From: Bacteroidota bacterium
GTDB taxonomy: Bacteria > Bacteroidota > Bacteroidia > Bacteroidales > JAIOZK01
NCBI GenBank assembly: GCA_034521425.1
Contig: JAXHMP010000001.1
Location: 1,737,737 to 1,801,736 of the forward strand
DNA length: 64,000 nucleotides
Reading direction: 5' to 3'
Below are positions 15,169-19,117 of this stretch, in pieces (the first letter of the stretch is position 1; each line of letters starts with the position of its first letter). Below the pieces are notes generated by a model. The model was not told where the DNA came from. It did no database searches and saw only the letters and a program-made list of their open reading frames with translations. The translations under genes were made by a program, and so were the position numbers.

Positions 15169-16794
15169 TCACGATAAAACCTGAAATCTGAATCCTGAAT
15201 CTGAAATCTGAATATAAAAAAAAAACCGGCGGGTCTTCCACCGGTTTTTTTTATTTGCATACGCGACCGATCGTGTTTCACGGATCACCGTGATCTTGAT
15301 CTGCCCCGGGTAGGTCATTTCCTCCTGTATTTTTTTGGAAAGGTCGTAAGAGATCTGGTTGGCTTCCTGGTCGCTGACCTTTTCGGCACCAACGATCACC
15401 CGCAATTCCCTGCCGGCCTGCACGGCAAATGTCTTCACCACTCCCGGGTAACTCAGGGCCAGTTCTTCGAGCTTACTGAGCCGTTGAATATAAGCCTCCA
15501 CCACTTCTCTTCTGGCACCCGGCCGGGCTCCGGAAATGGCATCGCAAACCTGTACAATCGGTGCCAGCAGGCTCTCCATTTCCACTTCGTTGTGGTGGGC
15601 GCCGATGGCATTCACGATATCGGGTTTTTCCTTGAATTTTTCTGCCATTTTCATTCCCAGCAGGGCATGGGGCAGGTCAGATTCATTGTCGGGCACCTTG
15701 CCGATATCGTGCAACAATCCGGCCCGTTTGGCTTTTTTGGGATTCAAACCGAGTTCGGCTGCCATGGTGGCGGACAGCAACGCAACTTCTTTGGAGTGTT
15801 GCAGGAGGTTCTGTCCGTAGGACGACCTGTATTTCATCCGCCCGATCATGCGCATCAATTCGTGATGCATATTGTGGATCCCCAGATCAATGCAGATCCT
15901 CTTGCCGGTTTCCACGATCTCCTGTTCGATCTGTTTCTGTGTTTTGGCCACCACCTCCTCAATTCTGGCCGGATGTATTCTTCCGTCGGTAACCAGTTTA
16001 TGGAGGGAAAGCCGTGCGATCTCTCTTCTCACCGGGTCAAAACCTGAAAGGATGATGGCATCGGGAGAATCATCGATGATGATCTCAATACCTGTAAGTG
16101 ATTCCAGGGTCCTGATATTACGTCCTTCCCGCCCTATGATGCGGCCCTTGATCTCGTCATTCTCAATATTGAAAACAGAAACCGTATTTTCGATGGCATG
16201 CTCTGCTGCCGTTCGCTGGATGGTTTCAATTACGATCTTCTTGGCTTCCTTTTCCGCTGTGATCTTAGCCTCTTCAATGATGTCGTTCATCATGACCGAA
16301 GCATCGGCACGTGCCTCATCTTTCAGCGATTCAATCAACTGCTCCATGGCCTGCTCGGTGCTCAGGCCGGAAATGGCTTCCAGTTGTTCGATTTGTTTCT
16401 GGCGGGCCTTTTCCAGGTCTTCCTGTTTCCTGGCAACAATCTCCAGTTGCCCGCTCAGGTTTTCCCGGATCTTGTCCACCTCGTTCTGTTTACGCTGAAA
16501 CTCCTCCATTTTCTGCGAAAGACTTGCTTCTTTCTGCTTTAACCTCGATTCTCCGTTTTGGATTTCAGCATTCCTGTCGTTAATTACCTTCTCATGTTCT
16601 GATTTAAGTTGAAGAAATTTTTCCTTGGCCTGAAGGATCTTTTCCTTCTTGATAACTTCTGCCTTTTCTTCGGCCTCCTCCAGCACGATCTTGCTTTTCT
16701 TTTCAACAGCCTTGCGCAGTATAGTGGCAGTGATAATACCCCCGATCAATGCGCCTGCAACAGCTGCAATGACTCCAATTATTATACAATCCAT
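15169..16794 (-). CDS. rny: ribonuclease Y; as sequenced the ORF reads through its own terminator, true stop probably near 15251
   Basis: An N-terminal TM helix, coiled coil, KH domain and HD domain (AGLLHDIGK) are present. The canonical C-terminus ..VIRETRxVxYAK* would be restored by one extra A in gcaAAAt (plus-strand ttt at 15254-15256). As sequenced, 27 extra codons cross the terminator hairpin. Confidence 0.9.
15181..15213 (+). repeat. five tandem CTGAA(A)T(C) units in the 3' UTR of the TPR-lipoprotein gene
   Basis: ctgaaat ctgaatc ctgaat ctgaaat ctgaat, read directly from the sequence. It lies immediately upstream of the terminator hairpin. Confidence 0.8.
15216..15252. terminator. bidirectional intrinsic terminator between the TPR-lipoprotein gene (+) and rny (-)
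   Basis: A10, then hairpin ccggcggg-tct-tccaccgg (15226-15244, one mismatch), then T8. Both strands read as a hairpin followed by a U-tract. Confidence 0.75.
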
Positions 16795-16829: not shown

Positions 16830-17039
16830 AAAAAAACCCACATTAATTCAGGAGTTTTTATAAACCCCAAAAAAGACACGTATAGGGTTGCCAAATTTTT
16901 CGAAAGTCCACTGTCTTCCTGAGAAGAATCCCGGTTTTCCCTTTACAGGGCGGGATTGAGGCCTGTTCTAGAAATTTATGAGCTTTTAACCCTAAATTAA
17001 AAAATGTTGAGTTTAAAAACTGTTTGAATTAATGCGGGT
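16830..17039 (-). ncRNA. candidate ~210-nt structured RNA (6S-like rod with central bubble, or structured rny leader/attenuator)
   Basis: No credible ORF is present. The helices are concentric. Helix 1 pairs 17038-17025 with 16850-16837 (14 bp, one G-U that would be an A-C mismatch on the plus strand). Helix 2 pairs 17021-17011 with 16865-16853. Helix 3 pairs 16994-16988 with 16889-16883. The apical hairpin spans 16957-16927. A U7 tract directly follows the closing helix. Confidence 0.5.
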
Positions 17040-17070
17040 AACTCTTTATATTCTATATCAAAGAACCTTG

Positions 17071-17358
17071 TTAACTTAAAGCTTCTGATAATACCCTGTC
17101 AATTTCAGTAAGCCTGTCCGACAGCTCTCTCTTCTCCTCCGATTCCAGCAACTCCTGTTTGAGTGCTCTGGAGGCGAACAACAGGGAAACCATCGCCAGC
17201 AGGTCCTGCCTGTCTTTGTAGGCATAATTGTCAGAAAAATCTTTCAATCTTTCATTGATCTGCTTGGCTGCCTTCCTTACAACTTCTTCCTCCTGTTTGG
17301 TTATGGTTAGCCTGTAAGGCCTGTCTGCTATCTTAACTGAAATTGTCAGTTCTTCCAT
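17071..17358 (-). CDS. zapA: cell division protein ZapA
   Basis: This 95-aa ORF (ISVKIADRPYRLTI..) has a coiled-coil C-terminus, as expected for the ZapA family. Confidence 0.8.
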   Translation of the reverse strand: MEELTISVKIADRPYRLTITKQEEEVVRKAAKQINERLKDFSDNYAYKDRQDLLAMVSLLFASRALKQELLESEEKRELSDRLTEIDRVLSEALS

Positions 17359-17380: not shown

Positions 17381-17668
17381 TTACGTATTCAAAAGCCCAA
17401 TACATTTATCAATTTCCCGCACGAGCTCACCAATCTTATTTTTGGCCTGATCTCTGCCAGGTCCATCTTCAAGCGATTTAGCCAGTTTTAATGTTGTTAT
17501 TTTTTCTTCCAGTATTTTGATTCCTAATTTTTGTTGTTTCAACTCCTGATTCAAGTTGTCATTCCTGTTGGCCAGTGCTGAATTCTCCTCCTGCAAAGCT
17601 CCCAGCTTTTTGATAAGCTTTCCAACCTTGTAGTCAATCCCTGATATGAGGGTCTTTTCATCCTTCAT
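17381..17668 (-). CDS. small coiled-coil protein upstream of zapA (ZapB-like architecture, unknown function)
   Basis: About 95 aa with heptad-rich sequence (LGALQEENSALANRNDNLNQELKQQKLGIKILEEKI). It sits 22 nt upstream of zapA on the same strand. The ATG at 17668 is preferred over the GTG at 17671. Confidence 0.6.
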   Translation of the reverse strand: MKDEKTLISGIDYKVGKLIKKLGALQEENSALANRNDNLNQELKQQKLGIKILEEKITTLKLAKSLEDGPGRDQAKNKIGELVREIDKCIGLLNT

Positions 17669-17684
17669 CACTCGCTAATTTGAG

Positions 17685-17692
17685 CAAAAATA
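17685..17692 (-). promoter_or_regulatory. candidate -7 box (TATTTTTG) for the coiled-coil/zapA operon
   Basis: The reverse complement of caaaaata matches TAnnTTTG. It is only ~16 nt from the start codon, so the leader would be very short. Confidence 0.3.
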
Positions 17693-17842: not shown

Positions 17843-19117
17843 ATGACAGAAGAATTCCTGCATTTCGTATGGAAGTTCAAGATGCTTTCGCTGCCTTTGT
17901 TTTTGCAAAGCGGAGAGGAGGTTCATATCCTGAGATCCGGGATCCATAATCATGATGCCGGCCCCGACTTTATCAATGCCATGATCAGGATTGGAAAAAC
18001 CCGCTGGGCCGGCAATGTTGAAATCCATCTGAATGCCTCCGACTGGTTCAAGCACCGCCACCAGAATGATCAGCGTTACGACAATATCATCTTGCATGTG
18101 GTATACCGGAATGACCGGGAGGTAAAAAGGAAAAACAATGAAAGCATTCCCACGCTCGAATTGACCCGGCATATCGATGAGAGTTTGCTGAACCGCTACC
18201 TGGATATCATCGGATCCACCCGGCGCATCCCTTGCCAGAATATGTTGAAAAGCGTCGACAGCATCATCATCCGGGACATGCTGGAGAAAGTCCTGGTGGA
18301 GAGGCTGGAGCAAAAGTCCATTTTTATCCTGAACAGGCTGGTGCAGAACAAGAACAACTGGGAGCAAAGCTTTTATGAACACCTGGCGGCAAGTTTCGGA
18401 CTGAAAGTCAATGCAGAAGCATTTGAGATGCTGGCCAGGTCTTTACCGGTGCACTATCTTGCCCGGCACAAGGATGATCTTTTTCAGCTTGAGGCTCTAC
18501 TGTTCGGACAGGCAGGCTTCCTGAACGGGAGTTTCAAGGATAGCTATCCCCGCCAATTGAAAAAGGAATACCGGCACCTGCGGAATAAATTCAATTTGCA
18601 ACCCATTCCTGTTCACAACTGGAAATTTTTGCGTCTGAGGCCTTCCAATTTCCCGGGCATCAGGATCGCCCAGTTTGCCGCACTCATGCATTGCTCGCCC
18701 GGCATCTTCTCCGAAATACTCGAGACCAAAGAGGTGGATCATTTCGCCGGGATGTTCAAGCTCAGGGCTTCATCTTACTGGGACAGCCATTATCGTTTCG
18801 AAAAGAAAAGCAGCGGCCGCCCGCGGCCTAAAGTGCTTGGAGAGAACAGCCGGTTGGTAATCATGATCAATACCATTGTGCCCTTTCTCTTTGTTTACGG
18901 CAAACAAAAATCGGATCAGCGATACTGCAGCCGGGCGATCAACCTGCTCGAAAGAACTGCCCCCGAAGAAAACCAGCTAACACGCCTGTGGAAAGAAAGC
19001 TGTATGCCGGTGCAATCTGCTTTCGACAGCCAGGCATTGTTGCAACTCTTTAACCAGTATTGCAGGAACAAGAAATGCATAGAATGTAAAATCGGTATCA
19101 AACTCCTGAAGGCTTAG
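17843..19117 (+). CDS. DUF2851 family protein
   Basis: 424 aa; the N-terminus EEFLHFVWKFKML and the C-terminal cysteine pattern (CRNKKCIECKIG) are typical of DUF2851. Confidence 0.75.
   Translation: MTEEFLHFVWKFKMLSLPLFLQSGEEVHILRSGIHNHDAGPDFINAMIRIGKTRWAGNVEIHLNASDWFKHRHQNDQRYDNIILHVVYRNDREVKRKNNESIPTLELTRHIDESLLNRYLDIIGSTRRIPCQNMLKSVDSIIIRDMLEKVLVERLEQKSIFILNRLVQNKNNWEQSFYEHLAASFGLKVNAEAFEMLARSLPVHYLARHKDDLFQLEALLFGQAGFLNGSFKDSYPRQLKKEYRHLRNKFNLQPIPVHNWKFLRLRPSNFPGIRIAQFAALMHCSPGIFSEILETKEVDHFAGMFKLRASSYWDSHYRFEKKSSGRPRPKVLGENSRLVIMINTIVPFLFVYGKQKSDQRYCSRAINLLERTAPEENQLTRLWKESCMPVQSAFDSQALLQLFNQYCRNKKCIECKIGIKLLKA

Follow-up and report, generated by a model that had tools for sequence, protein, structure and literature searches.

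The window analysed here, a 64,000-nucleotide (nt) stretch of contig JAXHMP010000001.1 from an uncultured Bacteroidales bacterium, carries between zapA and rny a segment which is very probably a 6S RNA gene of the ssrS type (16830-17041, minus strand, ~205-212 nt). 6S RNA is a small RNA that holds RNA polymerase in resting cells and is a global regulator of transcription. The segment is a diverged, unannotated member of this known RNA class and no new kind of element. A sequence-only reading of the same DNA had proposed either a 6S-like RNA or a structured leader of rny, and the former is borne out by a match to the full Rfam 6S-Flavo model, covariation in 80 sequences, covariance-model links in both directions to the 6S RNA of Bacteroides thetaiotaomicron, and the zapA-ssrS gene order. 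A covariance model built from the spacers of relatives scores the segment at 199 bits, and its predicted fold is more stable than those of shuffled sequences. The mature RNA probably begins a few nt 5′ of the closing helix; its 3′ end lies in the U-tract that follows this helix.

Predicted structure of the RNA

The minus-strand spacer between the zapA stop codon (17071) and the rny ATG (16794) has the letters given in the sequence-only reading, which had described it as free of credible open reading frames (ORFs). The ORF list and Pfam agree with this: all ORFs of at least 20 amino acids (aa) there start with TTG, most of them overlap rny, and a 63-aa TTG ORF overlapping the spacer has no Pfam match. 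Both neighbours were confirmed by Pfam, zapA through ZapA (2.3e-17) and rny through RNase_Y_N (6e-40) together with KH and HD.

The minimum free energy (MFE) fold of 17045-16825 on the minus strand has -61.7 kcal/mol, compared with -44.6 ± 4.0 kcal/mol for 200 dinucleotide shuffles (z = -4.27), none of which folded as well, and the plus strand folds less strongly (z = -3.10). The helices that had been picked out by eye recur in this fold. The closing helix, described as CCCGCAUUAAUUCA (17038-17025) paired with UGAAUUAAUGUGGG (16850-16837), has 15 base pairs (bp) in the fold and is formed by the 5′ strand ACCCGCAUUAAUUCA (P1, 17025-17039, minus) and the 3′ strand UGAAUUAAUGUGGGU (16836-16850, minus), the latter making up a terminator together with the U-tract in both the fold and the alignment. 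The U7 tract (16830-16836, minus) stands directly 3′ of the G+C-rich P1 base, as had been noted, and resembles the tail of an intrinsic terminator. Helix P2, earlier given as AGUUUUUAAAC (17021-17011) with GUUUAUAAAAACU (16865-16853), consists of a 5′ strand (AGUUUUUA followed by AACUC; 17009-17021, minus), which pairs with 16867-16853 and is the predicted template region for product RNA, and of a 3′ strand (GGGUU..UAAAAACU; 16853-16867, minus), which may form an alternative local hairpin (16868-16851) once P2 is open.

Beyond a large central bubble, the internal stem runs through a series of short helices separated by small internal loops, with UAGGGUU, GCU, AAAUUU, GAA, AG, CC and C on its 5′ strand (16958-16994, minus) and the complementary 3′ strand at 16883-16911 (minus); it is supported by the fold and by the 80-sequence alignment described below (A4). 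The pairing of UAGGGUU (16994-16988) with AACCCUA (16889-16883) had already been recognised, and the fold adds the helices GCU/GGC, AAAUUU/AAAUUU and GAA/UUC as well as a second apical hairpin. The apex is a three-way junction with two hairpins (16914-16956, minus; fold and covariation). The first of these, AUCCCG-CCCU-GUAA-AGGG-AAAAC-CGGGAU (16956-16928, minus), corresponds to the hairpin previously seen at 16957-16927, and the second reads UCUUC-UCAG-GAAGA (16927-16914, minus). The architecture expected of 6S RNA, a rod of ~150-210 nt with a closing stem, a large bubble, an apical stem and covariation, was found.

Conservation and covariation

Relatives were gathered by an Rny protein scan with one genome per species, which gave 80 loci (L001-L080), nearly all of them labelled Bacteroidales or unclassified Bacteroidota metagenome-assembled genomes (MAGs). 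Rny identity to the window is 94% in L001 and 68-78% in the other loci, and zapA lies upstream in ~75 of the 80, with spacers of 230-320 nt. By blastn the spacer is 65-83% identical over ~240 nt in many genomes with Rny just 70-77% identical, which is unusual for non-coding DNA at that protein divergence.

When the window fold was mapped onto a structure-blind MAFFT alignment of 37 spacers (A2), 75.8% of cells were paired, against 35-49% with partners slid by 1-3 columns; 37 pairs had changed on both sides, and none of 500 shuffles reached the observed covariation. A covariance model (R1) was built from A2 and thus contains zapA-rny spacers only and no Bacteroides sequence. In 79 of the 80 loci R1 gives a single strong match (62-199 bits), just upstream of rny and on the rny strand, and it never exceeds 35 bits on the reverse complement. 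The sole exception is an Arcticibacter locus with a spacer of just 130 nt. In the R1-fitted alignment of 80 sequences, the window and 79 loci (A4), 82.8% of cells are paired and sliding lowers this to 49% or less; compensatory changes mark 55 of 62 pairs, and covariation scores 0.442 where shuffled alignments give 0.174. Since A4 was fitted by the model it leans towards the structure, and A2 serves as the independent check. The comparison of related spacers that the sequence-only reading had called for shows, in both alignments, helices conserved with compensatory changes.

The closing helix (helices 1-2 of A4) is 85-95% paired with compensatory changes in 13 of 13 pairs, the inner 5 bp of P2 are 94% paired, the internal stem (helices 6-10) is 77-97% paired with many compensatory changes, and both apical hairpins covary at every pair (helix 11, 6/6; helix 13, 5/5). 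Columns 94/241 hold a U-G pair in 77 of 79 sequences, and further G-U pairs are frequent. Together with the 3′ U-tract and the orientation of the Rfam match, these abundant G-U pairs settle the minus strand as the transcribed one, in line with the earlier proposal.

Relationship to known 6S RNAs

No Rfam family matched the window at the curated thresholds. When matches were reported by E-value, 6S-Flavo (RF01685) was the only Rfam match in the window (16862-17012, minus), covering the full model (1-108) with E = 8e-5 in a local search and 0.0073 window-wide. The paired core of 6S-Flavo corresponds to the internal stem of the window RNA, and the two share ACUCAAC at the 5′ end and GG(A/G)GUUU at the 3′ end. 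They differ in that 6S-Flavo is a 108-nt core model with a single short tetraloop hairpin, whereas the window RNA has two more outer helices, a terminator and a 45-nt two-hairpin apex. Weinberg et al. stated that the 6S-Flavo alignment “might be partial” and that extra pairing could lengthen the hairpin; the two outer helices seen here are the extension they foresaw. 6S-Flavo has been annotated and is expressed as 6S RNA in Flavobacterium psychrophilum (PMC9723704).

The second line of homology leads to BTnc017, the 6S RNA of B. thetaiotaomicron, which was validated by differential RNA sequencing with a transcription start site (TSS), a processing site and product RNAs (PMC7366714). Its locus, taken from gut metagenome contigs, is Rfam Bacteroidales-1 (RF01693, “6S-Bacteroidales suggested”) at 179 bits. 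R1 matches BTnc017 end to end with 29.7-30.9 bits (E ~1e-5 in 57 kb, the E-values being rough), and conversely Bacteroidales-1 matches the zapA-rny RNA of L046 over its full length (31.4 bits), an RNA also matched by 6S-Flavo (33.5 bits). Homology to an experimentally validated 6S RNA was found in this way by structure-aware models, with rough E-values. Global pairwise alignment linked the window RNA to the B. thetaiotaomicron 6S RNA only indirectly: the best score was that of L064 (117 versus 55 ± 6 for shuffled sequences), while the window RNA scored 68. Judged by these matches, the zapA-rny RNA family bridges 6S-Flavo and Bacteroidales-1, which argues that both Rfam families are one.

Members of Bacteroidales-1 (BTnc017 and Segatella copri) resemble the window RNA in their length of ~180-210 nt and in a G+C-rich closing-helix base followed by a U-tract; the B. 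thetaiotaomicron design is GCCG...CGGC plus U6, and the shared closing helix ends in CGG(G/C) and a U-run. They also have in common AAACUC at the bubble edge, GGCC..CA and GUGGA blocks, and the two-hairpin apex, which is part of the Bacteroidales-1 consensus structure. The B. thetaiotaomicron gene differs from the one described here in its canonical TACATTTG promoter box, in place of GTTCTTTGA, and in its rplT locus, in place of zapA-rny. The S. copri 6S RNA, of the Bacteroidales-1 family, accumulates in stationary phase (bioRxiv 10.1101/2024.04.05.588293).

Escherichia coli ssrS likewise encodes a rod with a large central bubble on the same strand directly downstream of zapA, a gene order which had been noted in the sequence-only reading and which we found in NC_000913.3; zapA and the RNA gene are 41 nt apart in E. 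coli and 31 nt apart here. According to Bell et al., beta- and gamma-proteobacteria have a conserved ZapB-ZapA-SsrS array (PMC7641849). There is no detectable sequence similarity between E. coli 6S RNA and the window RNA. The partner sigma factor, too, would be a different one, the sigma-A of Bacteroidota. The 3′ ends also differ, being a predicted intrinsic terminator here and Rho-dependent in E. coli, where, going by the title of Chae et al. 2011 as cited in PMC7641849, Rho-dependent termination of ssrS has implications for 3′ processing.

Central bubble and proposed mechanism

The central bubble measures 14 x 15 nt, somewhat less than the ~16 x 17 nt first estimated. Its 5′ strand is AACAUUUUUUAAUU (17008-16995, minus) and its 3′ strand, which is non-template-like, is UACGUGUCUUUUUUG (16882-16868, minus). 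AACA at 17008-17005, directly 3′ of the P2 sequence AAAC(U/C)(C/U), is present in 80/80 sequences and comprises the most conserved unpaired nucleotides. On the 3′ side near-invariant positions are UA at 16884-16883 (U in 66/80, A in 77/80) and U16878 (79/80).

In the R1 alignment C17006 falls on C34 of BTnc017. One product-RNA TSS has been called for the B. thetaiotaomicron 6S RNA (PMC7366714), and in the part of the TSS table available to us the only TSS listed within that gene is the orphan 512957, on C34. From this correspondence the product RNA is predicted to start opposite C17006. Relative to a start at C17006, UA 16884-16883 and U16878 may then occupy the place of a -7 box (TAnnTTTG).

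The mechanism of 6S RNA is established from E. coli, B. subtilis and B. thetaiotaomicron. By analogy, the bubble would mimic an open promoter and bind the housekeeping sigma-A RNA polymerase holoenzyme, which would be sequestered when growth slows. Upon nutrient upshift the polymerase would transcribe the bubble's 5′ strand, giving a predicted product RNA that reads 5′-GUUGAGUUUAAAAAC and begins with 5′-GUUGAGUUU opposite C17006 in the invariant AACA. This product RNA would unzip P2, the freed 3′ strand would fold into a local hairpin, and the enzyme would be released. A suitable hairpin of 7 bp exists at 16868-16851, and most orthologues are able to form it (73.9% paired versus 52-62% in slid controls, with weak covariation). 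It is the only alternative structure found, and it does not compete with the closing helix.

Termination and transcription

At 16841-16830 the 15-bp closing helix ends in GUGGG and U7, the signature of an intrinsic terminator. As its G+C-rich base runs directly into the U7 tract, the helix is predicted to double as an intrinsic terminator, one whose stem encloses ~180 nt. GCGGG followed by a U-run occurs in all aligned orthologues, with tracts of U5-U11. A consensus terminator scanner reports nothing here because it allows loops of just 3-8 nt. The U7 tract lies 35 nt from the rny start, and the corresponding distance is 23-98 nt across the loci.

Sigma-A of Bacteroidota recognises -33/-7 promoters. 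Between 16700 and 18000 the only canonical Bacteroidota -7 box on the minus strand is TATTTTTG (17685-17692, minus), upstream of a 96-aa ORF; it is a possible promoter for this ORF and zapA, and perhaps for 6S-rny as well. rny itself (RNase Y, 15169-16794, minus; Pfam) has no canonical promoter between the U-tract and its start, and such a box is absent there in all 80 spacers examined (window and 79 loci). In 7 of 79 loci the RNA gene itself contains a canonical box, a frequency close to that expected by chance. Given the lack of a canonical box between U-tract and rny, the latter is probably transcribed through the 6S gene. This arrangement recalls the co-transcription of ssrS and fau in E. 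coli, the genes directly following 6S being fau there and rny here. An internal promoter AAAAUUUG (16899-16892) that would bypass the terminator was rejected, as its positions covary as helix pairs and TTTG is not conserved.

A conserved 10-mer (17058-17067, minus; GGUUCUUUGA / GGTTCTTTGA in the window, family consensus CGTTCTTTGA in the alignment) precedes the RNA. Its form is (C/G)GTTCTTTGA, and it is separated by 4 nt from the preceding zapA stop and by ~17 nt from the 6S closing helix that follows. Exact GTTCTTTGA is found at this place in ~51 of the 80 loci and almost nowhere else in them. The motif has the TTTG of the Bacteroidota -7 box without the TA, it stays beside zapA when insertions part it from the RNA, and with respect to the RNA it is placed much as the TACATTTG box is in B. 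thetaiotaomicron. It may act as a -7-like promoter box of non-canonical type, or it may signal processing. The 6S RNA could start from such a promoter at GTTCTTTGA or be cut out of the orf96-zapA transcript; its 5′ end would be a TSS ~5 nt after GTTCTTTG or a processed end, and the transcript would end at the closing-helix terminator.

Insertions between GTTCTTTGA and the RNA take several forms. L013 has one of ~130 nt (2120-2263) that resembles a miniature inverted-repeat transposable element and carries inverted CTTTGTGAA/TTCACAGAG-type repeats, shorter hairpin-forming insertions occur at the same place in L018 and L030, and L008, L019, L028 and L029 have a 14-nt insertion. At the other end of rny, the ORF (541 aa) runs 28 codons (15169-15255, minus) beyond the point where its homologues end (residue 513), across what appears to be its own terminator hairpin AACCGGUGGAAGACCCGCCGG plus U10 (~15250-15216) and a 6-7-nt tandem repeat (15177-15213); the stop codon may have been lost, or the A-run may hold a homopolymer error.

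Gene neighbourhood and lineage comparison

Upstream of the RNA, the order in the window is coiled-coil ORF, zapA, 6S, rny, parallel to zapB-zapA-ssrS-fau of E. coli. zapA occupies 17071-17358 (minus), and the 96-aa coiled-coil ORF takes the place of the proteobacterial zapB at 17381-17671 (minus). An ORF of 95-111 aa of this kind always precedes zapA in the further loci compared (L201-L213), both in environmental Bacteroidales and in Bacteroides/Phocaeicola, and its C-terminal motif (R/E)L(V)REIDKCI.LLN is conserved. Its identity as ZapB was unsupported, with E = 0.17 in BLASTP against E. coli ZapB and only coiled-coil noise in Pfam and NCBIfam. Searches of PDB for relatives of Rny and ZapA found none.

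Divergent to the orf96-zapA unit, the window has a 424-aa ORF (17843-19117, plus), the counterparts of which in L201-L206 carry Pfam DUF2851. In these long-read metagenome contigs the neighbourhood of DUF2851, TonB_C, orf95, zapA, 6S and rny is conserved. The same zapA-6S-rny order is found in L209, a contig filed as viral in IMG/VR, with an R1 match of 52 bits at 2671-2879; ~470 nt upstream on the other strand (2114-2197, minus) lies an Rfam RT-17 RNA (43.6 bits, threshold 40.4).

The 6S gene of B. thetaiotaomicron is located after infC-(rpmI)-rplT and before a flavodoxin-like gene. In true Bacteroides/Phocaeicola loci, recognised by an Rny 93-95% identical to that of named species, the order coiled-coil ORF-zapA-rny is kept, the spacer is ~100 nt, and there is no 6S RNA in it. 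The simplest reading is that each genome has one 6S gene, which moved from the zapA to the rplT locus in the Bacteroides/Phocaeicola lineage. rplT was sought as a sign of a second 6S copy and was found neither in the window nor in L001-L080. Unfiltered R1 searches gave 13-20 bits on short hairpin-plus-U terminators in the Bacteroides loci, matches which we treat as generic and not as remnants of 6S because the terminators of rny itself score alike.

The Bacteroides/Phocaeicola spacer has a near-perfect hairpin of ~22 bp, CACGCACA...UGUGCG plus U6, ~35 nt before the rny ATG (L208, 2924-2982; L212, 1429-1476; L210, 1422-1480), with no canonical promoter after it. Possible readings of this hairpin are termination of zapA, attenuation of rny and a remnant of the closing helix of 6S RNA.

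Evidence against and alternative explanations

Several observations weigh against the assignment as 6S RNA. The 6S-Flavo match of 41 bits lies far below the gathering threshold of 85 bits, and relatives score 32-39 bits; Bacteroidales-1 (threshold 60 bits) has no match in the window at E ≤ 10, and neither has the classical 6S/SsrS model, which also finds nothing in ten relatives at E ≤ 1. In the covariance search suggested in the sequence-only reading, the full 6S-Flavo model thus aligned, below threshold, and the classical 6S model did not match. The 6S-Flavo shortfall can be traced to the 45-nt insertion that replaces the tetraloop and to the end of the Rfam model at the inner edge of P2. 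A sequence-only nhmmer profile of the 80 RNAs does not detect the B. thetaiotaomicron 6S RNA; together with the rough E-values, this leaves the homology well supported, and not overwhelming for the window sequence alone. The outer 8 bp of P2 are only 59% paired in A4 and form the weakest part of the structure. No canonical TAnnTTTG promoter precedes the RNA, and none lies on the minus strand between 17685 and 16795. Finally, the TSS table, in the part available, gives no strand for B. thetaiotaomicron 512957.

We consider it highly improbable that the RNA is a dedicated cis-acting leader or attenuator of rny, in which the rod and U-tract terminate transcription 35 nt before rny and read-through, perhaps controlled by RNase Y, sets expression without any function in trans. 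RNase E, RNase III and PNPase do autoregulate through structured leaders, and such a role would fit the position of the RNA immediately before rny in 79 of 80 loci, the 80 spacers without a canonical promoter between U-tract and ATG, and the strong hairpin and U6 which Bacteroides/Phocaeicola carry at the same place. However, the homologous Bacteroides RNA, validated as 6S, follows rplT and precedes an unrelated flavodoxin-like gene, and in Bacteroides/Phocaeicola and Arcticibacter the RNA is missing from the rny locus, so that the association is not obligate; a 6S RNA unlinked to rny and a zapA-rny spacer without 6S in the same lineage argue against a dedicated leader. Moreover, the invariant nucleotides are located in the central bubble and not in a terminator/antiterminator switch, and we found no conserved alternative fold that would compete with the closing helix. 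The leader proposed in the sequence-only reading is therefore not supported as the primary function, and as the only function it is contradicted by the findings in Bacteroides; the part of it that stands is the lack of a canonical promoter between U-tract and rny.

Bacillus has a paralogous 6S-2 RNA, and the window RNA might similarly be a second 6S-like RNA beside an rplT-linked Bacteroidales-1 copy, possibly with another sigma or growth-phase specificity. The two loci that harbour homologous 6S-type RNAs within Bacteroidales, zapA-rny and downstream of rplT, agree with this, as does the lack of rplT in the window. We regard a paralogue as unlikely all the same: Bacteroides/Phocaeicola with Bacteroidales-1 have no such RNA between zapA and rny, which fits one moved gene, the two types can be aligned over their full lengths and share both the helices and the two-hairpin apex, and the 64-kb window has no second match. 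We give the least credence of all to an origin from the zapA 3′ untranslated region, an independent base-pairing small RNA or an elaborate zapA terminator, all unrelated to polymerase. The RNA does lie 31 nt after zapA, without a canonical promoter, and ends in a terminator, but a simple terminator needs neither ~60 covarying pairs nor a conserved 14 x 15-nt bubble, the RNA offers almost no extended single-stranded seed outside the bubble, and it is homologous to 6S families. A 6S RNA gene located between zapA and rny remains our preferred interpretation.

Significance

A further proposal, which we put forward as doubtful, is that across this large Bacteroidales group the 6S gene constitutes an obligatory 5′ leader of rny. 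Lacking its own promoter, rny would owe its expression entirely to read-through at the terminator or to a zapA-6S-rny precursor being cleaved, with GTTCTTTGA as promoter or processing signal, and the coiled-coil-zapA-ssrS array would be ancient and shared with proteobacteria. If true, this leader role would tie the supply of the main endonuclease of mRNA decay to the RNA which sequesters polymerase.

At least 79 species-level Bacteroidales genomes carry the form of 6S RNA described here, among them MAGs labelled Prolixibacteraceae, Lentimicrobiaceae and rumen or gut Bacteroidales. Annotation pipelines detect 6S RNA through Rfam thresholds, and with a score below half of the threshold of the nearest model this form probably goes unannotated. 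The zapA-ssrS linkage of beta- and gamma-proteobacteria is also present in Bacteroidota, and the Bacteroides/Phocaeicola lineage seems to have relocated its 6S gene to the rplT locus. The mechanism of 6S RNA itself being already known, the value of the finding is practical and evolutionary.

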